DNA from: an uncultured Candidatus Saccharibacteria bacterium
Lineage (GTDB): Bacteria > Patescibacteriota > Minisyncoccia > Phycocordibacterales > UBA12079
Reading direction: 5' to 3'
Assembly: GCA_964459145.1 (NCBI GenBank)
Contig: CAYWKC010000001.1
Location: 40,200-104,199 of the forward strand
Length of the DNA stretch: 64,000 bases
Shown here: piece by piece, positions 5,708 through 61,146 of the stretch
How the letters are laid out: every line of letters starts with the position of its first letter
How positions within the stretch are numbered: the stretch's first letter is position 1
Program-made: the position numbers and the translations under genes
Notes under the pieces: model-generated
The model's database searches: none
Told to the model about the DNA's origin: nothing
What the model saw: the letters and a program-made list of their open reading frames with translations, nothing else

Positions 5708-6826
5708 ATGTCTCAAAAAAGAAGTTTTGATAAAGTTTTTGCAACGATAGTAATTGTCTTGATTTTGGCTGGCTTTTTTTTGTTTTTATCGGCTTCTCTA
5801 AGTTTATTGGCTAAAGAATCAGGGGCTCAATTTTCTTCAATTTTTTTTAGCCAATTTGTTTTTGGTTTAGGACTAGGTTTAGTTGCTTTATTTATTTTTT
5901 CAAAAATACATTATCGTAATTACAAAAAATACACTTTTTATCTATTCTTAATTTCTTTAGTTGTCTCTTTTTTGGTTTTTGTCCCCAATTTAGGGTTTGA
6001 ATATAATGGGGCTCATCGTTGGCTGTCTATTTTGGGAGTGTCTTTTCAACCAGCTGAACTGCTCAAGTTTAGCTTTGTTTTATATTTTGCCACTTTATTA
6101 TCTTCTTTTAAAGACAAAACTCACCAATGGAAATATCATATTTTGCCTATTTTAATTCTATTGGCAGTGGTCTCTGTTATTTCCTATTTACAACCAGATT
6201 ATGGAACTTTTATGATAATTGCTGTAACTGCTATGGCGATGTTTTTTGCTTCGGGAGTTCGTCTTAAGTATTTTTTTACGACTATTCTTATCGCAGGGGT
6301 CGGAGTAATTCCTATCATTTGTTCTAAACAATATATTTTGCAGAGATTTCTAACTTTTTTTAGTCCGGGGGAAGATGTTTTGGGAGCCGGTTATCAAATT
6401 AAACAATCACTAATTGCTATTGGTTCTGGTGGTTTCTGGGGAAATGGTTTTGGCAAAAGTATCCAAAAATTTGGAAGTTTACCTGAAGCAATTGGAGATT
6501 CAATTTTTTCTGTGACAGCTGAGGAATGGGGCTTTTTGGGAGCATCTTTTTTGGTGATACTTTTCTTCTTGTTTACTTATCGTGGTTTGAAAATTGCTTC
6601 TCGAGCAACAGATTCGTTTGGTGGACTATTAGTAGTGGGACTTGTTATACTAATAGCATCACAATCGTTTGTGAACATGGGTTCAATGTTGGGAATTTTC
6701 CCGATGATTGGAATGCCTCTTTTGTTTGTTAGTAAAGGAGGAACAGCTTTGTTATTTACTTTAGTAGAGGTGGGAATAATTTTGAATATTTCTAAATATC
6801 AAAAAAATAAAAATTATAAATTGTAG
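5708..6826 (+). CDS. ftsW: SEDS-family peptidoglycan glycosyltransferase FtsW/RodA
   Basis: About ten TM segments; C-terminal FtsW/RodA motifs. Lies immediately upstream of murG. Confidence 0.8.
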   Translation: MSQKRSFDKVFATIVIVLILAGFFLFLSASLSLLAKESGAQFSSIFFSQFVFGLGLGLVALFIFSKIHYRNYKKYTFYLFLISLVVSFLVFVPNLGFEYNGAHRWLSILGVSFQPAELLKFSFVLYFATLLSSFKDKTHQWKYHILPILILLAVVSVISYLQPDYGTFMIIAVTAMAMFFASGVRLKYFFTTILIAGVGVIPIICSKQYILQRFLTFFSPGEDVLGAGYQIKQSLIAIGSGGFWGNGFGKSIQKFGSLPEAIGDSIFSVTAEEWGFLGASFLVILFFLFTYRGLKIASRATDSFGGLLVVGLVILIASQSFVNMGSMLGIFPMIGMPLLFVSKGGTALLFTLVEVGIILNISKYQKNKNYKL

Positions 6827-6933: not shown

Positions 6934-8067
6934 ATGAAAATAGTATTAGCAGGGGGGGGAACAGGGGGTCATTTTTATCCCTTGATAGCAGTGGCTGAAA
7001 AAATTAATAAATTGGTGGAAGAGAGGAAACTCTTAAAACCACAGATTTATTACTTATCCAATGCACCTTATGATAAAAAAATGTTATTTGAAAATGACAT
7101 TATTTTTAAAAAGGTGTCAGCGGGGAAATTAAGGCGGTATTTTTCTGTGCTAAATCTTTTCGGTTTGTTTAAAACGGGGTGGGGATTTATAAAATCATTC
7201 TTTTTGGTTTTCAGTATTTTTCCAGATGTTGTTTTTAGCAATGGTGGCAATGCAAGTTTCCCTGTCTTATTAAGTGCCAAAATTTTTAGGATTCCTGTTT
7301 TAATTCATATTTCTGATACAGTGCCTGGAAGAACCAATGCTTGGGCGGCTAAGTTTGCCAAGAAAGTCTCTTTAGGTTTTTCTGAAGCAGAAGAATTCCT
7401 ATCAATAAAAAAAGATAAAATAGCTGTTTTGGGGAATCCAGTCAGAAAAGAGTTAATGAAACCGCTTTCAGAAGGAGCGAGAGAATTTTTGGATTTAAGT
7501 GAGGGTATCCCAGTGATTTTGATTTTAGGGGGGTCAAGCGGTTCTCAAGCTATCAACGAAAGTATTGTTGATGCTTTACCTGAGTTAGTCCAAAAATACC
7601 AAATAATTCACCAGACAGGAAAACAAGGAATCACTGAAGTAGAAAATAGGGCAAGAGTCGTTTTAGAAAATAGTGAATATAAAGAGAGATATAAAGTTTT
7701 TGCTTATCTTAACACCTTGGCTTTGAGAATGTCAGCGGGCATAGCTGATTTAGTTATTTCCAGAGCGGGAGCTGGTTCTATTTCAGAAATAGCTCTTTGG
7801 GGATTACCAAGTATTGTTATTCCGATCCCTGAAGAAGTCAGTAGTGATCAAAGAAAAAATGCTTTTTCTTTTGCTCGAGCTGGGGCAACAGTTGTTATTG
7901 AGCAAGGAAATTTAACTACCCATATTCTCTTATCAGAAATAAAACATTTGATGGAAAATGAGACAAAAAGAAAGGAATTAGGAGAAAATGCTAAAAAGTT
8001 TGCAAAAGCAGATGCAGCTGAAAAAATTGCTCGAGGAATTCTTAATTTAGCTTTGGAACATGAATAA
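6934..8067 (+). CDS. murG: UDP-GlcNAc:lipid I GlcNAc transferase MurG
   Basis: MKIVLAGGGTGGHFYP N-terminal G-loop; GT28 C-terminal domain. Confidence 0.9.
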   Translation: MKIVLAGGGTGGHFYPLIAVAEKINKLVEERKLLKPQIYYLSNAPYDKKMLFENDIIFKKVSAGKLRRYFSVLNLFGLFKTGWGFIKSFFLVFSIFPDVVFSNGGNASFPVLLSAKIFRIPVLIHISDTVPGRTNAWAAKFAKKVSLGFSEAEEFLSIKKDKIAVLGNPVRKELMKPLSEGAREFLDLSEGIPVILILGGSSGSQAINESIVDALPELVQKYQIIHQTGKQGITEVENRARVVLENSEYKERYKVFAYLNTLALRMSAGIADLVISRAGAGSISEIALWGLPSIVIPIPEEVSSDQRKNAFSFARAGATVVIEQGNLTTHILLSEIKHLMENETKRKELGENAKKFAKADAAEKIARGILNLALEHE

Positions 8068-53599: not shown

Positions 53600-53632
53600 A
53601 ACCCCCAAGAATCAGGGCCGGTTGGGGGGGGT
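53600..53632. terminator. bidirectional terminator (dnaE and tRNA-Glu)
   Basis: AACCCCCAAGAATCAGGGCCGGTTGGGGGGGTT with flanking T and A runs. Confidence 0.55.
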
Positions 53633-53657
53633 TAGGGTGTTTTTAGTACCAAAAGAG

Positions 53658-53729
53658 TAGCTCTACCGGGAATTGAACCCGGATTTCCGCCTTGAGAAGG
53701 CGATGTCCTAACCGTTAGACGATAGAGCC
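53658..53729 (-). tRNA. tRNA-Glu (CUC)
   Basis: Acceptor GGCTCTA/TAGAGCT, D-arm TCGTCTAACGGTTAGGAC, anticodon loop TTCTCAA, T-arm CCGGGTTCAATTCCCGG. Confidence 0.8.
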
Positions 53730-53951
53730 AAATATTATTTAAAAATTAAACTTGTTACTATATTAACATTTTTCTTAGAACATCGCCTTCTATGATGCTC
53801 TCTCTATTTTCTATCTCACTATCGTTCAATAAAGAAAATTTTTTCTTTCAGAAAAACCGGATGAAAAGCCAAGTAGCCTGTCTGCCGACAGAGGCAGGTT
53901 GGCTTTTCATTCCAATACCCATTAGACGATAGAGCCAAATACTCCTATATG
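53730..53951 (+). repeat. tRNA-Glu 5'-side element ending in a 20-nt copy of the tRNA 5' end plus flank
   Basis: 53932-53951 TTAGACGATAGAGCCAAATA matches 53715-53734. Hairpin GAAAAGCCAA...TTGGCTTTTC at 53873-53918 encloses a GC palindrome related to that at 14552. Confidence 0.45.
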
Positions 53952-54143
53952 TTACTGTTTTTCTACTAAAAATCAAAGTTATTTACATGAACCCCCCCCC
54001 AATCACCCCCAATCACCCCAAAACCGCCCTACTTCTTAGGGGTTTAACCTTATTTATGAAGTATCTGTGAAGGTTATCCGCAAAGGTTCAACCTCCGCGA
54101 ACCAAAAAAACAACTCGGCAATTAAAAATATGTCATTTCTATT

Positions 54144-54392
54144 TTATAAATCATTTAAAGCTGTTAATTCAGCATTATTATATTCTTCTTCCGTAATCTC
54201 TTCGCCACTCGTTAAAACTTCAAACACAACTTTATTACCATACGGAACTTCAGATTCTCCCTGAGTAGTTTTTATAAACCCGACATAAGGAGCGTCAACT
54301 CCTGTTGTTGGAACAGTCCGAATAAACTCCCCCAAACCTTTGGCAAACACCTTCTCTCTAAACGCCTTCATTGTTAAATGATTTTCTGACAT
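54144..54392 (-). CDS. hypothetical protein, last gene of the restriction-modification operon
   Basis: 82-aa ORF co-oriented with and downstream of the nuclease gene. Confidence 0.35.
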   Translation of the reverse strand: MSENHLTMKAFREKVFAKGLGEFIRTVPTTGVDAPYVGFIKTTQGESEVPYGNKVVFEVLTSGEEITEEEYNNAELTALNDL

Positions 54393-54491
54393 AATTTTTA
54401 TTTTCCCTCATAACCCAATCTCGCGTTAAAATAATCACAAAATTCACAATCTTTTCCTGACTCTGGCATCTGTTCACTGTCTAAACATTTT

Positions 54492-55151
54492 TTAATTTCT
54501 CCAATCATCCCCCCCCACCCAACTGTCATCCCCTTCATAGGCAATCAGCTTGACATCAAAATCAATCTTCCCATCAAACGCTTCCCGATCTAACTTCCCC
54601 GTGCAATAAACAAAGTAGCCCGTCTTAGAAACTTTCAACCCAGTCTTTCTCAATAACCACTGATAAACTTCCATTTGTCTTTTATAGCCGTCTTGCCATT
54701 CTTTATCTAATTCTACCACTGGTTCATCTTTCGCGGTCGCTTTATAATCAACGACAATATATTCCCCCTGACTATTTATCCAAAGATCATCAATCGCCCC
54801 GGTGATGACCAAACCAGTTTTTTTGTCCTCGTAACGAACACCTTTAAAATTCTCCCTCCAAATATCCAACTCCTCATGAGCGACCGGCCGAGCATCTACC
54901 CCATATTGCTCCTGTAAAGGATGTTGTTCCCCTTTCGCCCGATGAATATCAAATTCTTTTTTAAGTAGAGTATCAACCGCACTGTTGATAGCAAAAGGAA
55001 ACCCCGGCGGTCTCTTCGTTCCCAATTTATTATCAATATAAAAACAACGAGGACATTGCCGAAACAAATCTATCTTAGACCGACTCAGTTTCCATTGCTT
55101 TCCTCCGTAATTCCACGAAGCTTTTCTGTTGGAGTTATAATAATCTGACAT
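54492..55151 (-). CDS. PD-(D/E)xK nuclease, Cas4/RecB-like
   Basis: N-terminal LSRSKIDLFRQCPRCFY motif, GAIDDL and IVVDYKAT nuclease motifs. Confidence 0.6.
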   Translation of the reverse strand: MSDYYNSNRKASWNYGGKQWKLSRSKIDLFRQCPRCFYIDNKLGTKRPPGFPFAINSAVDTLLKKEFDIHRAKGEQHPLQEQYGVDARPVAHEELDIWRENFKGVRYEDKKTGLVITGAIDDLWINSQGEYIVVDYKATAKDEPVVELDKEWQDGYKRQMEVYQWLLRKTGLKVSKTGYFVYCTGKLDREAFDGKIDFDVKLIAYEGDDSWVGGDDWRN

Positions 55152-55181
55152 GGTTTTAATTTAAAATTTATAATTTTTAAT

Positions 55182-57419
55182 CTACAAGTTTAAATTTTTC
55201 CATTCTTTTAAATCCGAATCTTTTGCAATCTTCCACAAACCAGATACTTCTTTTATCAAACCCCCTTTAAATTTTTTATTTTCTTTTAACCAATTTTCTA
55301 ACGCTCTTGCTCTCATTCTTGCACCTTCTCCCTCCGCAGTAAAGCCACTTTTTGTATCCACAATCCAAATATTATTTTTGGTTTTTATAAACCAATCAGG
55401 AAAAAATAACCTTCCGTCCTCCCTTTTCACAGAAAAATTATCTGACCCATTATCCCCATTCTTATACCACCAAATAACACTTTTATTTTTCTCCAAATAA
55501 TCCACAAAACTTTTTTCATTTTTATTTTCTTTTTCTAAGTAACAAGGCTCTAAAGCACATTTTTTGCTTTCTATTTCTTTATACAAAGAATTATATCTAA
55601 CTTCTGACAAAGGAATTTTTATCGGTTTCGTTTCATCTATCCTTTTTTCTTTTTCATTTTCTTCTATTTTTCGTACCTCTTTATATTTCAAAAGGGCTTC
55701 ATTTATTATAGGAACCAGAGTACTATTTGATCCTTTCATTAAATCATTAACAATATAATGATAATATTCTTTCTTCTCCCCTATTTTTAAAATATCTTCA
55801 AAAAATACATTCAAAGCTGATTTTAATACTCCATAGGAACGAATTATTCCACCATATTTTGATTCTTCTTCCTGTTTAGACAATACTTCAATACAAAGTT
55901 TCTTATATAGTTTTTCTACATCTGGATAAGACATTTCTTGTCCAAAATCTTTTGCTTCTTTTAATCGTTTTATAAACTTATCATAATCAGTAATTTTTTG
56001 GTCAACTATTAAATTCAAATCTAAATGATTATTAAAATAAAAACCAGCTTTTTTTAAGGCTTCTTTGTTTTTAAAATATTTTTTTGCAACCTCAATAAAA
56101 GTGAATTGAAAAGTTTTTCCTAAATCATTATAACTAGTTCTTTGAGAGACAAAAGTTTTTAAATCAATTTGTTCTACATCTTTTTTTATTTTTGCTACAA
56201 GAAGTTTTGTTTCATTTGGTCCTATTCCTTGAAAATTTTTATAACTGTCTATAATTTCATTTTTTGTGTAAGTCGTATATAAATAAGAATGATTAAGGAT
56301 AGACTCTAAATATTTTTTTGCTTCTGGCATTCTCAAAACTCTTCCTAAAAGCTGAATTTGAAAGACTGGGCTCTTGGTTTCCCTATACATCAACATCACT
56401 TGGGCTCTAGGGCAATCCCATCCAGTCGCTGGGGCTTGTTTAAAAAGTAAAACATCAACTTTATTATTATGTTTTGTTATATTTTCTAAGTTTTCTTTAT
56501 CAGAACCAGTCAACCACACTGCTATTTTATTTTTTTCAACACCTTTTTCTTCTAAATACCCCAAAACAATATCTTTTTGTTTTCTCTCTTCTTGATCTTT
56601 CTTTTCATCATTAGGAAGTTGAATCATCAAAAGAGGATTAACATCAATATTATTTTTTTCATAAACTTTTTTTAATTCTTCTCTTTTTTTAAGAGCCAGA
56701 TCTAAAACATACCTATCTAAATCTTCTTCTTTTTTATCTTTAAAATCTTCTTTTGTTTGTGATAAAATACCCTCTTTAATAAGTCCTGCATTAACAACAT
56801 CTTCATAAGGTATATCTACATCAACATTCTCACTATCATGAGTAGCCGTTATTTTTAAAATGATTCTAGGGTTTATTTCTTTTATAACTTCATCAGCTAA
56901 TTGAGTTCTCACTTCCCTATGGGCTTCATCAATTATTAAAATAATATTTCTATCTTCTAATTTGGTTCTTTCTATCATTCCATCCCAAGTAATCTCTGTT
57001 TCTCCCTCTCTTCTTAATTTTCTTCCCTCTTTGTTCGCAGTTTTTATCTTAGACCAATTAAAAAACAAAATTTCATTTTGTTCTAAAATTTTACCTCTAC
57101 TTAAATCATTCAAATCAGTAATATCTATGGCAACATTTCCATCATAGTATTGCATAAATTTATTTTTACTTTGGGAAGCAAGATCTCCGTCTTTTGACCC
57201 TCCAATACTAACCCACAAAAAAGTTAAATCAGCCTCAACAAGTCTTGGGTCATTTGTAAGGTCTTTTATAAATTGAGCCATCATCACAGTTTTCCCCGAT
57301 CCTGTTGGAGCTTGAAATCTTATAGATTGCATTGATTCTTTTTTCCACTTATGAAGAAACTCGTCCATCAACTTTTCTGTAGCTTCTATTTGAAATGGTT
57401 TCAATATTATTTGTTTCAT
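55182..57419 (-). CDS. res: Type III restriction enzyme Res subunit (SF2 helicase plus PD-(D/E)xK)
   Basis: Motif I FQAPTGSGKT, DEAH box IIDEAHR, C-terminal FPD...IVDTK endonuclease motif. Confidence 0.8.
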   Translation of the reverse strand: MKQIILKPFQIEATEKLMDEFLHKWKKESMQSIRFQAPTGSGKTVMMAQFIKDLTNDPRLVEADLTFLWVSIGGSKDGDLASQSKNKFMQYYDGNVAIDITDLNDLSRGKILEQNEILFFNWSKIKTANKEGRKLRREGETEITWDGMIERTKLEDRNIILIIDEAHREVRTQLADEVIKEINPRIILKITATHDSENVDVDIPYEDVVNAGLIKEGILSQTKEDFKDKKEEDLDRYVLDLALKKREELKKVYEKNNIDVNPLLMIQLPNDEKKDQEERKQKDIVLGYLEEKGVEKNKIAVWLTGSDKENLENITKHNNKVDVLLFKQAPATGWDCPRAQVMLMYRETKSPVFQIQLLGRVLRMPEAKKYLESILNHSYLYTTYTKNEIIDSYKNFQGIGPNETKLLVAKIKKDVEQIDLKTFVSQRTSYNDLGKTFQFTFIEVAKKYFKNKEALKKAGFYFNNHLDLNLIVDQKITDYDKFIKRLKEAKDFGQEMSYPDVEKLYKKLCIEVLSKQEEESKYGGIIRSYGVLKSALNVFFEDILKIGEKKEYYHYIVNDLMKGSNSTLVPIINEALLKYKEVRKIEENEKEKRIDETKPIKIPLSEVRYNSLYKEIESKKCALEPCYLEKENKNEKSFVDYLEKNKSVIWWYKNGDNGSDNFSVKREDGRLFFPDWFIKTKNNIWIVDTKSGFTAEGEGARMRARALENWLKENKKFKGGLIKEVSGLWKIAKDSDLKEWKNLNL

Positions 57420-57420
57420 A

Positions 57421-59316
57421 TTAGTTGTTCAAACTCTTATATATTTTTAATATCGGTTCCGGAATATGTTCTACTTTAACATTTTTATATTCTGCATAAT
57501 CATTTTTAAAATCATTCCCCCCATAAGAAAAAATATAAATTTTCACTTCTTTCTTATCTAATATTTTTTTCTCCATTTCTGGTAAATTATCCAAATTCTC
57601 TCTAAAATAGATTCCCACAAATTTATCTTTTTCGTCAGTAAAAATTTGATAATACTTATTTTTAACGATTTCCTTAAATGTATCTTCCTTTAAAGCTATC
57701 ATTTGCCCAGCTTCGTGAGTAAACTCTAATTTCTTTTTATCAGAAACATTTTTAATATTTTCTACATCTACAAATTCAGTTTTAAAATATTCTAAAGCTC
57801 CTCCCAATCCCCCCACTTTTTCCCCATTGGGTTTTGTATACCCTTTTATAACTTTTTTAATTCTTGGTTGAGTTATCCTCCTACAAATTCCATACTCTTG
57901 AATTTCTTTTGCACTCATACCTTTTTCTTGCAATTCTTTTTCAAACCCATTCAATTCATTGTTGGTACACAAAATAAATCTCCTATTTCCTCCGTCTTCT
58001 TTGTTTAAATCTAAAACCGCATGTCCTGTTGTTCCAGAACCAGCCATAAAATCAAGAATTACTGAATTTTTCTTCTCAGAGATTTTTATTAACAATTTTA
58101 TTAAACCAATTGGTTTTGGTGATGTAAAATATGAATTTGAACCAAAAAGTTCCTCTATTTCTTTTGAAGCATTTTCATTTGTTGCCACATTATCAAACCA
58201 AGTATCTACTATCTGACCTTGAATCTCTGATAAAAATAATTTTCTATTAGGAACACCATTTTTTGAAACAACAAGTCTCCCGTCTTTTATATATTTATCA
58301 AATGTACTTTTTGAACATCTCCATTTTCCTTTTATAATCCTACCATCTGGCATCTTTATAGAAAATTCTTTGTTTTTAGAACTATCAGGTTGCAATAATG
58401 GAACCAAACGCCAATCACCCCGAGGATCATTATCAGGGTTTTTATATGTTTTTTTAACGTAATCTTCGTTTAAAGGAATATTATTTAGTTGACTCAAATC
58501 AATATTTTTTGTGTAGCAAAATATGTAATCATGAACACGAGCAACATTTTTAGATAATCTTGGTGGAGTTTTTGTTCTACGCCATAAAAAATTAGCTATA
58601 AAATTTTCTCCCCCAAAAATTCCATCGCAAAGAATTTTTAATTGGGCCATCTCATTATCATCAATAGATATAAAAATAACCCCATCATTTTTTAATATTT
58701 TTTTTGCCAACACTAACCTTTTTTCCATAAAAGAAAGCCACTTTGAATGTCTAAAAGTATCTTCTCTATCTACGAAAGAATCATTATAAATAAAATCTTT
58801 ATTGCCTGTATTATATGGGGGATCAATATAAATAACATCAATTTTATTTTTATGAGTATAATTTAAAACTTGCAAAGCATGATAATTATCTCCCTCAATT
58901 AAAATATTTTTAGGTTTATTTAAGTCTTTATCTTTAATTCGTTTATCTTCTTTAGAAACTAAAATTGGGGCTTCTGTTTTACATCTTTCAACGACTTCTT
59001 CCTTGTGGTCTTCCCAAACAAGTCCGTACTTTTTCTGCTTTTTTAAAAGTTGCAATTCTTTGATAAGTTCGTCTTTTGTATATTCTTCAAAATCTTTTTT
59101 ACTTACAGGACTTTTTTTGGCTAAATCAGAAACTAAACCCTTTTCTTTAATCTCTCTAATATGAGCCACTGTATATCTTCTGTCTTTTCTCTTCCCAATT
59201 CTATCAGGCACAATAAAACCCTCCTTTTCCCAATTCCGCAAAGTGTCCTCATGCACACCCAAAAGCTCCGCCACCTCCCCAATCTTATATAATTTTTCCC
59301 TATTTTCTTTTTTCAT
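57421..59316 (-). CDS. mod: Type III Mod-like DNA methyltransferase with N-terminal MerR-type HTH
   Basis: Beta-class order: motif IV IYIDPPYNTGN precedes motif I FMAGSGTTGHA. N-terminal LYKIGEVAELLGVHEDTLRNWEKEGF HTH. Stop and start overlap with res. Confidence 0.8.
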   Translation of the reverse strand: MKKENREKLYKIGEVAELLGVHEDTLRNWEKEGFIVPDRIGKRKDRRYTVAHIREIKEKGLVSDLAKKSPVSKKDFEEYTKDELIKELQLLKKQKKYGLVWEDHKEEVVERCKTEAPILVSKEDKRIKDKDLNKPKNILIEGDNYHALQVLNYTHKNKIDVIYIDPPYNTGNKDFIYNDSFVDREDTFRHSKWLSFMEKRLVLAKKILKNDGVIFISIDDNEMAQLKILCDGIFGGENFIANFLWRRTKTPPRLSKNVARVHDYIFCYTKNIDLSQLNNIPLNEDYVKKTYKNPDNDPRGDWRLVPLLQPDSSKNKEFSIKMPDGRIIKGKWRCSKSTFDKYIKDGRLVVSKNGVPNRKLFLSEIQGQIVDTWFDNVATNENASKEIEELFGSNSYFTSPKPIGLIKLLIKISEKKNSVILDFMAGSGTTGHAVLDLNKEDGGNRRFILCTNNELNGFEKELQEKGMSAKEIQEYGICRRITQPRIKKVIKGYTKPNGEKVGGLGGALEYFKTEFVDVENIKNVSDKKKLEFTHEAGQMIALKEDTFKEIVKNKYYQIFTDEKDKFVGIYFRENLDNLPEMEKKILDKKEVKIYIFSYGGNDFKNDYAEYKNVKVEHIPEPILKIYKSLNN

Positions 59317-59328
59317 TGTTTTGTTTTA

Positions 59329-59565
59329 TTAAAAAATTACAGCCAAAAGGGTTGTTATCAAAATAAGACCAATTCCTACCAACCAAGGATTATTCCAGTT
59401 AACTTTCCTAAATTTTATATTATCATAATACCAATTTTTAAAAAATAATTTTCTATGACAGACTGGATTAAATCTATATTCCCATATTTTCCTTTTTTCC
59501 CATTTACTACTGGAATCTTCAGGATTTTTATATTTAATGAATATTGTTTTTCCTTTATTATTCAT
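59329..59565 (-). CDS. hypothetical small membrane protein
   Basis: 78 aa with a C-terminal TM helix; in the operon upstream of mod. Confidence 0.35.
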   Translation of the reverse strand: MNNKGKTIFIKYKNPEDSSSKWEKRKIWEYRFNPVCHRKLFFKNWYYDNIKFRKVNWNNPWLVGIGLILITTLLAVIF

Positions 59566-59569
59566 TTTT

Positions 59570-60418
59570 TTATTTTTTGATATTATTTTTCTTTTTATCT
59601 AATATTTTTTTCATACTATCAGTAAATTCTTTATTTTCATCCTTTTCCCTTAAAACTTTTTTAAATAAAAAAGTTAATGATTTTTTTATTGCATCAGATA
59701 ATTCTAAACACTCATCATCATTTTCAGCATGCAAACCTTGACTTAACGAAGAATGTAAAATACCTAAAGGATTCACTCCATTAGGACAAAGAGAACTTGG
59801 AATTAAATCTTTAACTAAATCAATTTTTTCTTGAGCAACTCTTGTGGTTTTTGTTTTTTCAAAAGCTTCTTTATATTTCTCTAAATCTTCTCCTTTTAAT
59901 AAATCACTCGTGAACTTAAGAAGTTCATCAATGACACCTTCTACTATTCTACGAAAATAAGCAAAAGCACCTACACCATAGCCCTGAGATTCACAAATTA
60001 ACCCATTTTTATAATATTCAGTATATTCTTCTAAATTTTTCTCTAACTCTTTATCTATATCAATACTCCATGCTGGAATTTGCCCAACCTTCTCCATATA
60101 AATAATTTCTTCTGTTTCTTCTTCATTTTCTTTTTTTATCTCCGCCAAGCCAAAATTAACAAAAAATATTCTAAAGGAATTATTACACGCCGAACATTTA
60201 TATTTTAATCTAACTATCTTATTAGGAATCTTTTCCCATTCATCATAATCAACTTCGTCATATTTATTTATCATGTTAAAAGTCTGATCTGAATCACAAT
60301 TATCACAATGCATATGTATTGCTGGTTTAGGTAATTGACTTAATTCGTCCGACTTATAAAAATCTGTAGTAAATTTTTTATACAAAGGATATTCTTCTAA
60401 AAACTTTTTATTTGCCAT
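59570..60418 (-). CDS. hypothetical protein with N-terminal C4 zinc ribbon
   Basis: HCDNCDS...CSACNN four-Cys motif; otherwise helical, no recognised motifs. Confidence 0.45.
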   Translation of the reverse strand: MANKKFLEEYPLYKKFTTDFYKSDELSQLPKPAIHMHCDNCDSDQTFNMINKYDEVDYDEWEKIPNKIVRLKYKCSACNNSFRIFFVNFGLAEIKKENEEETEEIIYMEKVGQIPAWSIDIDKELEKNLEEYTEYYKNGLICESQGYGVGAFAYFRRIVEGVIDELLKFTSDLLKGEDLEKYKEAFEKTKTTRVAQEKIDLVKDLIPSSLCPNGVNPLGILHSSLSQGLHAENDDECLELSDAIKKSLTFLFKKVLREKDENKEFTDSMKKILDKKKNNIKK

Positions 60419-60432
60419 AATTTTATTTTTTA

Positions 60433-60675
60433 CTATCTAATTTTTCCATTTATATTATCTAATAAATATGTCATATTTTTTACTTTATCTTCTAAACTTT
60501 TTACTTCTTTGTGTAAATCATCAATTTTAGCCCAAGCTTGATAATATTCTGTAACTCCCACAACTCCACCACATGAAGAACATTGTATAAAGAAAAATTT
60601 ATATCTAGAATAATTAGGTGAATTTTCGGCTAACTCAAATCGAGTATTCCCACATTTTGTGCATTTTGAAACCAT
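60433..60675 (-). CDS. small zinc-ribbon protein with C-terminal coiled coil
   Basis: CTKCGN...CSSCGG; first gene of the operon. Extended -10 TGTGATATACT on the minus strand around plus 60735-60750. Confidence 0.4.
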   Translation of the reverse strand: MVSKCTKCGNTRFELAENSPNYSRYKFFFIQCSSCGGVVGVTEYYQAWAKIDDLHKEVKSLEDKVKNMTYLLDNINGKIR

Positions 60676-60977
60676 ATTTTTATTTAAATTAACTTCCTAA
60701 TAATCTCTTATTTATTAAAGAATTTTTATCACTACTGCTAGTATATCACAAAGCACCCCGAAATGCAAGCATTCTCTGAATTTTCATAACTTATCGAGGT
60801 CAAATCCATTTCCACCTCTTCGATGGGTCGCCGATGAGACAACTACCCCAAAAAACCTCACCTCACAAACCCCCTAAAACAAAATCTTCGATTTTGTTCG
60901 GGCGAACATCAAAGATGTTTTAGCCCCACCCAACTTGGTACCTTTTTCAAACGGTCGTTCAAAAAGGGTACCTATTA

Positions 60978-61006
60978 AAAATAGGAGTGCTTCAAGCACT
61001 CCTATT
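60978..61006. terminator. perfect hairpin terminator after murJ
   Basis: AAATAGGAGTGCTT-caa-GCACTCCTATTT. Confidence 0.55.
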
Positions 61007-61045
61007 TAAAACTATCAACTTCCCCATCCATCCAACCTCCTCACA

Positions 61046-61091
61046 ATTCAGTACTCTGACTACTAAATTTACAGTAGTCGGAGTACTGAAT
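61046..61091. repeat. 19-bp-arm inverted repeat directly 3' of murJ
   Basis: ATTCAGTACTCTGACTACT-aaattt-ACAGTAGTCGGAGTACTGAAT. Confidence 0.5.
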
Positions 61092-61146
61092 CTAGGTCAT
61101 TCGGCATAACTATCGGCATAAAACTATCCACAAAAACCTAGCTTTA

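Follow-up and report, generated by a model that had tools for sequence, protein, structure and literature searches.

Gene content of the locus

We examined a gene cluster on the minus strand of a 64,000-nt stretch of DNA (the window; contig CAYWKC010000001.1) from an uncultured Candidatus Saccharibacteria bacterium, in which a Type III restriction-modification (R-M) pair, Mod and Res, is preceded by three further genes (g1, g2 and g3) and followed by a stand-alone Cas4-like nuclease gene and an 82-aa open reading frame (ORF). Coordinates are positions within the whole window (Table 1). The first-pass annotation had taken these genes for one acquired operon of eight genes forming a composite defense system, and the ORFs that it listed are indeed all present on the minus strand, co-oriented and tightly packed (gaps of 1–30 nt): from g1 through g2, g3, Mod, Res and the nuclease to the 82-aa ORF, the successive gaps are 14, 4, 12, 1, 30 and 5 nt. 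The “eighth gene,” counted without being listed, is a 48-aa ORF that proves to be the C-terminal fragment of the nuclease, whose gene is frameshifted. The apparent eight-gene system is thereby corrected to an islet of five genes plus resident genes. A Shine-Dalgarno sequence is not evident before the islet ORFs; this is uninformative, since it is equally absent before murJ.

Table 1. Features of the islet and its surroundings, from the murJ side to the dnaE side (positions in the window).
Feature	Position	Strand	Description
Likely acquired variable segment (defense islet)	about 55158-61146		Between murJ stop and Cas4-like gene start; g1, g2, g3, Mod, Res
Structured spacer	60676-61146	-	471 nt, downstream of murJ; at least one of its tandem hairpins has a U-run behind it; islet promoter follows
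Promoter-like element	60740-60768	-	TTGCAT, 17-nt spacer, TGaTATACT extended -10; 65 nt upstream of g1 ATG
g1	60433-60675	-	80 aa; CxxC...CxxC zinc-ribbon and C-terminal coiled coil
g2	59570-60418	-	282 aa; four-Cys beta N-terminal domain and helical C-terminal domain
g3	59329-59565	-	78 aa; C-terminal transmembrane helix, tail-anchored
Mod	57421-59316	-	631 aa; Type III methyltransferase with N-terminal MerR-type helix-turn-helix
Res	55182-57419	-	745 aa; SF2 helicase with C-terminal PD-(D/E)xK nuclease
Solo-Cas4-like gene, whole	54398-55151	-	Resident, outside islet; split by +1 G in G8
PD-(D/E)xK ORF (nuclease 5' part)	54492-55151	-	219 aa
48-aa ORF (nuclease 3' part)	54398-54544	-	Other frame, overlaps end of 219-aa ORF; C-terminal Cas4 cysteines
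82-aa ORF	54144-54392	-	Orphan
tRNA-Glu 5'-end remnant	53916-53941	-	26 nt, 92% to intact gene; repeat search
tRNA-Glu(CUC), intact	53657-53729	-	ARAGORN and Rfam, 63.6 bits; divergent allele in replaced segment

Limits of the probably acquired segment

The limits of the islet follow from comparison with a relative, L091, whose proteins are 84% (DnaE), 78% (MurJ) and about 91% (nuclease) identical to those of the window genome. L091 keeps the frame of the locus, from murJ on one side to the Cas4-like nuclease, tRNA-Glu and dnaE on the other, and blastn aligns the two over murJ (62763-61210) at 75% and again over 55157-54397 at 89%, with no homology in between. The corresponding slot of L091 (3253-9938) is filled with other genes: an M10 peptidase, Fic, an EcoRI-type methylase with a 279-aa ORF, Bro-N, GmrSD and a 121-aa ORF. 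Because homology ends with murJ and resumes at 55157, only 6 bases ahead of the nuclease start, with different genes in between, we draw the acquired segment as running from there to the end of murJ. We consider it likely that this segment of about 6 kb is a horizontally acquired defense islet in a variable slot of a Patescibacteria (candidate phyla radiation, CPR) chromosome, with the Type III system as its core, g1, g2 and g3 alongside, and the nuclease and the 82-aa ORF outside. Thus, of what was first proposed, an acquired defense locus with the Type III pair in it stands, and the single acquired operon does not: synteny breaks at the murJ stop and at about 55157, so that the island ends before the nuclease and the 82-aa ORF.

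The Type III restriction-modification pair

Mod and Res, recognized as a Type III pair from the start, have the sequence-level features that define such a pair and appear to be a bona fide one. Mod matches N6_N4_Mtase (PF01555) in Pfam at 1.9e-40 and the PADLOC model MTase_III at 2.5e-102, and its motif order, DPPY at residue 165 with DFMAGSGTTG downstream of it, is that of a beta-class N6-adenine/N4-cytosine methyltransferase; Res matches ResIII (PF04851) at 3.9e-18 and REase_III of PADLOC at 1.1e-20 and carries the motifs GSGKT40, DEAH164, TAT191 and QLLGRVLR356 (QxxGRxxR) as well as PD674...DTK690, the C-terminal nuclease motif already noted in the first reading. The two genes are co-oriented, mod before res, with 1 nt between the end of one (57421) and the start of the other (57419). 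Res is too divergent to be matched to any PDB sequence by phmmer.

In Type III systems, methylation affects a single strand of a short, asymmetric site, and DNA without it is cut following ATP-triggered sliding; their activity is defined by hemimethylation of the asymmetric site together with ATP-dependent cleavage that needs two inversely oriented unmethylated sites. The core of the islet would be a canonical system of this kind, combining the beta-class N6/N4 methyltransferase Mod with a superfamily 2 (SF2) ATPase, Res, that brings its own nuclease, and restriction is its predicted activity. As a Type III system it is ordinary, even routine.

The N-terminus of Mod (residues 1-59; 59140-59316) matches the MerR_1 helix-turn-helix (HTH) at 8e-13, and a MerR-type HTH fused to Mod would probably autoregulate the locus. 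A match of Mod to the PADLOC model mad1 was rejected as a sign of a MADS system, as it reflects the MerR HTH alone. Homologues of this HTH (48–62% identity) are fused to the N-termini of Type I HsdM proteins in three loci (L019, L028, L053), and another, a free gene of 63 aa (L039 7219-7410), heads a Type III-like operon; every one of these four loci also contains g2.

A gene family embedded in restriction-modification operons

The second gene of the islet, g2, belongs to a broadly distributed and unannotated family. A protein search returned 736 homologous clusters, and homologues lie at 147 loci among GTDB species representatives, bacterial and archaeal, at 38–63% identity, spread over Patescibacteria, Bacteroidota, Proteobacteria, Planctomycetota, Cyanobacteria, Chloroflexi and at least six archaeal lineages. 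No Pfam, NCBIfam or PADLOC profile (5027 PADLOC v2 models) was matched, even when 31 aligned members were scanned at E <= 1, and the sole profile match was to phrog_25239 (4e-41; function not assigned). AlphaFold2 gave confident models (full length, predicted local distance difference test score [pLDDT] 81.5; residues 1-122, pLDDT 83.8 and predicted template modeling score 0.75), in which a beta-rich N-terminal domain with two CxxC pairs is followed by a helical C-terminal domain, and searches of these models against the PDB found no meaningful structural neighbor for either domain. The family alignment shows K110, Q113, E143, S144, R156, E160, N216, S226 and H230 to be invariant and Q145 and R157 nearly so, a set of polar residues that suggests a defined active or binding site. 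An RNase of the HEPN/DUF4145 type, a candidate for the C-terminal domain prompted by its FRRI-E helix and by the R-M embedding, would call for a HEPN-family profile or fold together with an Rx4-6H motif, and was rejected as having no profile or fold support.

We inspected the neighborhoods of g2 in 80 loci and found it inside or beside an R-M system in 14 of them, so that the suspected link of an upstream gene to restriction extends well beyond the window genome. Nine of these 14 are Type I operons, and in seven of the nine g2 demonstrably lies between hsdS and hsdR, starting 2–7 nt past hsdS in six of the seven. Elsewhere a Type III Mod abuts g2 (L014); a Woesebacteria operon (L039) runs from the free-standing MerR-like HTH through a Res-like gene and g2 to a Mod-like gene with 2-nt gaps; and a small N6_N4 methylase lies just downstream of g2 (L008, L050). 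When neighbors were clustered across the g2 loci, R-M components were the sole recurrent partners, and no conserved partner of any other kind emerged. Neither g1, g3, Res nor the 82-aa ORF was found beside g2 homologues in the 80 other genomes (tblastn, jackhmmer). One distant homologue lies antisense among the structural genes of a temperate Rhizobium phage, in the manner of a moron. Another is part of a dense island in an Anaerolineaceae metagenome-assembled genome (L021 427-9235), together with a Dam-type methylase, a 207-aa ORF, a Cas4-like nuclease, a 540-aa P-loop protein and an HTH/ImmA-like pair.

By this distribution g2 behaves as an apparently autonomous single-gene cassette, widely transferred and strongly prone to settle within R-M operons (Type I, II and III); we call it autonomous, not R-M-bound, because 66 of the 80 loci have no detected R-M gene in the inspected flanks and because of the moron-like phage copy. 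It would then be an embedded accessory function in immunity or control that profits from co-expression with the R-M genes and is not a subunit of the enzyme. Embedding inside defense systems is a documented predictor of defense function and has been used successfully to find new defenses, and the slot between hsdS and hsdR has been described as a hotspot for embedded defense genes (literature including bioRxiv 10.1101/2024.01.29.577857; PMC12255303).

It is also conceivable, if improbable, that g2 instead serves R-M systems as a dedicated factor in their control or assembly, for example by timing restriction against methylation after transfer or by modulating the endonuclease, rather than being an independent immune module. 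The precision with which it recurs directly behind hsdS and ahead of hsdR, or between Res and Mod in L039, the restriction of its recurrent neighbors to R-M genes, its zinc-ribbon-like domain with four cysteines and the co-occurrence, in L019, L028, L039, L053 and the window, of the homologous MerR-type HTH (either free or as a fusion with Mod or HsdM) are all what such a role would leave behind. However, most homologues have no R-M gene nearby, one is carried by a phage, and the R-M partners are of mechanistically different types (I, II-like and III), which makes a specific protein-protein role hard to reconcile with the distribution. We therefore keep to an autonomous cassette as the better account of g2.

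A resident nuclease with a frameshift in a poly-G tract

The stand-alone nuclease had been regarded as an unexpected accessory of the Type III enzyme. It appears instead to be the lineage's own resident, conserved, repair-type solo-Cas4-like gene and no part of the islet: it belongs to a conserved family, stays in L091 beside different genes, and is frameshifted here. The family has more than 8000 homologues, the 120 best of which are 70–98% identical and nearly all 248–255 aa long, and named members come from Woesebacteria, Andersenbacteria, Parcubacteria and other Patescibacteria. The gene matches PDDEXK_1 at 3e-11, and Cas4 models match its N-terminal part in one frame and its C-terminal part in the other, with the invariant cysteines C33/C36 in the 219-aa ORF and C235/C238 in the 48-aa ORF of the +1 frame. 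The RecB-type motifs lie in the 219-aa ORF. By descent (88–90% identity once restored) the gene is a member of the family, but it is not intact as assembled.

What separates the two ORFs is a run of eight G (G8, 54509-54516); removal of one G (G7) gives a protein of 250 aa that aligns along 100% of its length with intact 250-aa proteins at 88–90% identity. The same G8 is present in three other assemblies, and a G9 is present in L004 (a JGI assembly, about 6172-6180), whose contig ends 12 nt past the tract. Neither length keeps the reading frame, and none of these assemblies showed an in-frame allele. Close relatives read WVEG and the window genome WVGG, and it is plausible that a point change lengthened the G run and that slippage followed. 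The difference between G8 and G9 suggests heterogeneity in the population or slippage at the tract, and the slip from G7 to G8 would inactivate or phase-shift the nuclease. We thus have what looks like a natural poly-G frameshift, its length varying between samples, in an otherwise highly conserved nuclease. The 64-kb window has four G/C runs of at least 8 nt (6952-6959, 53624-53631, 53992-54000 and 54509-54516), three of them within 53.6-54.6 kb, around the tRNA and the nuclease.

A look for a CRISPR adaptation module (cas1/cas2) found no cas gene in any of five contexts annotated with Pfam. The survey by Hudaiberdiev et al. (2017; PMC5704561) describes solo-Cas4 as common in CPR genomes and solo-cas4 genes in general as inherited mainly vertically.

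The slot upstream of the nuclease

To see what surrounds the nuclease family elsewhere, we drew on five look-ups and on 75 metagenomic loci. At least 16 of the 75 have defense genes within three genes upstream and in the same orientation, and these are of many kinds: GmrSD, Eco57I-type, Type I and Type III systems, reverse transcriptase and AAA ATPase. Two of the loci, L107 and L136, carry Mod-Res pairs homologous to that of the window (Mod 38–43%, Res 30–33% identity); other genes (HerA-like ATPase, DUF3800) separate Res from the nuclease there, and the upstream flank of Mod-Res, incomplete in L107, holds no match to g1, g2 or g3 in either. Fifteen CPR metagenomic loci (including L121, L130, L131 and L139) have an ATP-cone plus Mrr_cat protein no more than three genes upstream of the nuclease, accompanied in 11 of them by MnmA, and a few of the 15 have genes for an MGMT-type DNA-binding protein and UDG downstream; in one close relative the upstream genes are GluRS and an M23 peptidase. 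The neighbors in the 15 loci hint at a repair role for the solo-Cas4-like nuclease. These contexts fit a nuclease that serves as a conserved repair-type anchor, with its upstream side as a hotspot of defense-gene turnover, and they give evidence that diverse defense genes in Patescibacteria have repeatedly landed in the slot upstream of the solo-Cas4-like gene.

Two further arrangements upstream of the nuclease were observed. L089 and L096/L097 share a cassette of a serine recombinase, an SNF2-PLD helicase (~1095 aa) and an Eco57I-type methylase (~1100 aa), which ends 6 nt ahead of the nuclease in L096/L097 and is separated from it by AAA_13 and DUF559 in L089, while the nucleases of the two genomes are merely ~73% identical; the cassette could be an R-M-like mobile element with this position as its target. 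Three unrelated metagenomic loci (L100, L143, L148) have a reverse transcriptase (RVT_1) of ~305 aa directly ahead of the nuclease.

Because at least 16 of 75 loci carry defense genes directly upstream, a functional link of the nuclease to restriction systems retains some probability, which we put as low: the nuclease would cooperate with the restriction system found upstream in each case, for instance in the processing of restriction fragments, and the G tract would be a phase-variable switch. Co-orientation of the neighboring defense genes, the differing lengths of the tract and the clustering of G/C runs around it speak for such a tie. Yet the partner systems are mechanistically unrelated, as expected of an integration or turnover hotspot beside a conserved anchor; many loci have housekeeping or repair neighbors alone; G8 and G9 are both out of frame, with the in-frame allele not seen; and the published analysis found no arms-race signature for solo-Cas4 (PMC5704561). 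We continue to prefer a resident nuclease beside a hotspot of turnover.

The small genes

None of g1, g2, g3 and the 82-aa ORF matched a PADLOC-DB v2 model at E <= 0.1. The first of them, g1, matches phrog_9414 at 1.1e-7; its six homologues in a protein search have CxKC and QCSSCGGVVG invariant, and 34 loci were found in IMG/VR. Its neighbors there, where they could be called, include CI-like repressors and CII-like and other transcriptional regulators, which make up a minority of the neighbors scanned, and two further look-ups placed g1 homologues in prophage regulatory regions. We take g1 to be a small phage-type zinc-ribbon protein of a kind typical of temperate-phage immunity regions; judged by position only, since it is the gene that directly follows the islet promoter, it could act as a small regulator. 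An NCBIfam match to the Lar restriction-alleviation protein (E = 0.009) is far below the cut-off and was treated as chance.

Six homologues of g3 were found among 1.84 billion representatives (35–47% identity over the alignment), and none in viral contigs; FNP..H.K and NPW-V are conserved and are followed by a hydrophobic tail. This conservation points to a real but rare tail-anchored family. The 82-aa ORF is an orphan and not part of the Type III system, of which it had been proposed as an accessory: it follows the Cas4-like stop and precedes a conserved hairpin, in some 300 bp lacking in L091 (where the stretch from 54397 to 54097 is 14 nt), and it forms a singleton cluster with no homologue in any locus examined. 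A Pfam match to Tis1_ImmP (E = 0.0011), which would make it a Tis1 immunity protein, is below the cut-off and was treated as chance.

It is quite unlikely, in our view, that g3 and the 82-aa ORF are mere noise in non-coding spacer. The G+C of g3 by codon position is atypical, lower at the first position (GC1, 0.24) than at the second (GC2, 0.29), the 82-aa ORF has no relatives, and a ribosome-binding site is evident for neither; against this, g3 has its homologues with conserved motifs and hydrophobic tail, the 82-aa ORF has a coding-like gradient from GC1 through GC2 down to the third position (GC3), and the ribosome-binding site is equally absent before murJ. The first-pass annotation had allowed that the small ORFs might be noise, which the conserved homologues of g1 and g3 contradict; it had also proposed to check whether the neighborhood recurs elsewhere, and g1, g3 and the 82-aa ORF accompany neither g2 nor the nuclease in other genomes.

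The tRNA-Glu remnant, the spacer and the promoter

A duplication scar in the tRNA gene had been seen as a boundary of the island. The scar exists, as a 26-nt copy with 92% identity, and the alignment with L091 places it away from the islet boundary: it lies 207 nt from tRNA-Glu and, as seen from the islet, beyond the nuclease. Window positions 53985-53916 align at 94% with the upstream flank of the L091 tRNA-Glu plus its first 21 nt, while the intact gene is 80% identical to that of L091 and has an unrelated downstream flank (blastn). The 5' remnant thus stands at the native position of the tRNA, and the scar is the trace of a replacement or rearrangement on that side of the nuclease which faces dnaE. 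We rejected a tRNA-targeted integrative island bounded by the scar on three grounds: the scar is off the islet flank, there is no integrase in 54-61 kb, and the islet ends have no repeats of 11 nt or more.

Other features were noted in the same region. The G/C-run arms 53615-53631 and 53993-54009 form an imperfect inverted repeat that brackets the rearranged tRNA segment; between remnant and intact tRNA, 53775-53791 is an inverted 17-nt copy (94%) of the D/anticodon-arm region of the tRNA; and 53861-53910 forms a strong hairpin whose arms are 19 nt long and which resembles a terminator on the plus strand. The inverted copy and the hairpin are further signs of rearrangement.

On the murJ side, the hairpin-rich spacer of about 470 bp described at first is confirmed: its minimum free energy is -143 kcal/mol, against -109 +/- 5.5 for shuffled sequences (z = -6.2), and it contains inverted repeats I1, I2 and I4, with hairpin arms of 19 and 14 nt. 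The tRNA was the sole Rfam match in the spacers. The single extended -10 promoter assigned to the first gene corresponds to the TGaTATACT element (60768-60740), which we read from the sequence and which a promoter scan did not list; it is a consensus match only, with 3 of 6 positions in the -35, and such matches are not significantly enriched in this AT-rich region (43 against 33 +/- 7 expected). If it is active, g1, g2 and g3 would probably share this one promoter with the R-M pair behind them.

Discussion

Several points weigh against an acquired islet that contains g2 as an R-M-linked cassette and stops short of the nuclease. The base composition of the islet is merely mildly atypical: the comparison of G+C suggested in the first-pass annotation did give lower GC3 for the islet genes (14–21%) than for the flanks (23–39%), yet with z = -0.8 to -1.6 they are at the low end for the window and not outliers, and we rejected base composition as proof of foreign origin, the deviation being weak. 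No att-like direct repeats were found at the islet ends in a search for direct and inverted repeats, which returned nothing of 11 nt or longer. Profile scans recognized no catalytic or DNA-binding domain in g2; the 66 g2 loci without a detected R-M gene are of varied contexts; and the link between g2 and R-M could come from a preference for insertion sites, not from function. The defense genes directly upstream of the Cas4-like gene in at least 16 of 75 loci include Type III pairs homologous to our own (L107, L136). Finally, G8 and G9 could in principle be assembly errors; yet G8 is reproduced in independent assemblies.

That the seven or eight genes form one composite defense system, with the nuclease and small proteins as dedicated accessories of the Type III enzyme, we consider highly improbable: the ORFs are co-oriented and tight with no terminator predicted in the gaps from g1 through the 82-aa ORF, members of this nuclease family in distant L107 and L136 likewise have a homologous Mod-Res ahead of them, and UvrD-Cas4 fusions are known beside Type III R-M (PMC5704561), but the synteny comparison appears largely to refute the model, as the nuclease stays in L091 when everything upstream of it differs, lies beside housekeeping or repair genes in many loci and is frameshifted here, L107 and L136 have other genes between Res and nuclease and no match to g1, g2 or g3, and g1, g3 and the 82-aa ORF are never found with g2 or the nuclease elsewhere. 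The idea of accessory or regulatory parts among the unassigned genes survives for g2, by its R-M links elsewhere, and fails for the resident nuclease and the orphan 82-aa ORF.

The interest of the locus thus rests on g2 and on the hotspot adjacent to solo-Cas4, not on the Type III system. We would tentatively entertain a broader possibility, more doubtful than the acquisition of the islet: that g2 is a new single-gene module, immune or R-M-modulating, with a fold that has no solved relatives, which is transferred between bacterial phyla and archaea, nests preferentially in Type I, II and III operons and works alongside restriction (it might be a back-up effector, for example, or sense that restriction has failed), and that the position upstream of solo-Cas4 is a lineage-wide defense hotspot in CPR. 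Either way, g2 is a concrete candidate for a new embedded function in defense or control in CPR, where defense biology is poorly known.

Relation to known systems

The closest counterparts of the R-M pair are the Type III systems EcoP15I and EcoP1I, which form Mod2Res complexes. Shared with them are the order mod then res with a 1-nt gap, a beta-class methyltransferase with DPPY ahead of the S-adenosylmethionine (AdoMet) motif, and a Res in which SF2 motifs are combined with PD-(D/E)xK at the C-terminus, besides the matches to MTase_III and REase_III. By contrast, Res is short here (745 aa) and divergent, without a phmmer match in the PDB, Mod has the N-terminal MerR-type HTH, and there are three additional genes ahead of mod.

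First-gene regulators of R-M islands, such as the C proteins and RptR, resemble g1 in that it is a protein of ~9 kDa encoded by the first ORF behind the island promoter, with phage homologues in CI/CII regions. The likeness is positional only: g1 is a zinc-ribbon with coiled coil, not an HTH, and no operator repeats were identified.

With its frame restored, the nuclease agrees with the solo-Cas4/PF12705 nucleases of CPR (Hudaiberdiev et al., 2017) in being a stand-alone PD-(D/E)xK protein of ~250 aa with four cysteines, outside any CRISPR locus and widespread in Patescibacteria, and differs in that the window copy is frameshifted in its G8 run. A second difference is the recurrence of varied defense genes just upstream, which we did not find in the consulted passages of that paper (PMC5704561).

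Among R-M-embedded defense genes (the PrrC and RloC anticodon nucleases, TgvAB, DarTG2 and the HEC/PDC candidates of PADLOC, found through “guilt-by-embedding”), g2 stands apart in having no nuclease, ATPase, HEPN or toxin domain, no PADLOC v2 match and no structural neighbor in the PDB, and in occurring within Type III and Type II-like systems as well; its defense role is that of a candidate only. It shares with this group the slot between hsdS and hsdR and, like many of the PADLOC candidates, it is also found solo elsewhere.

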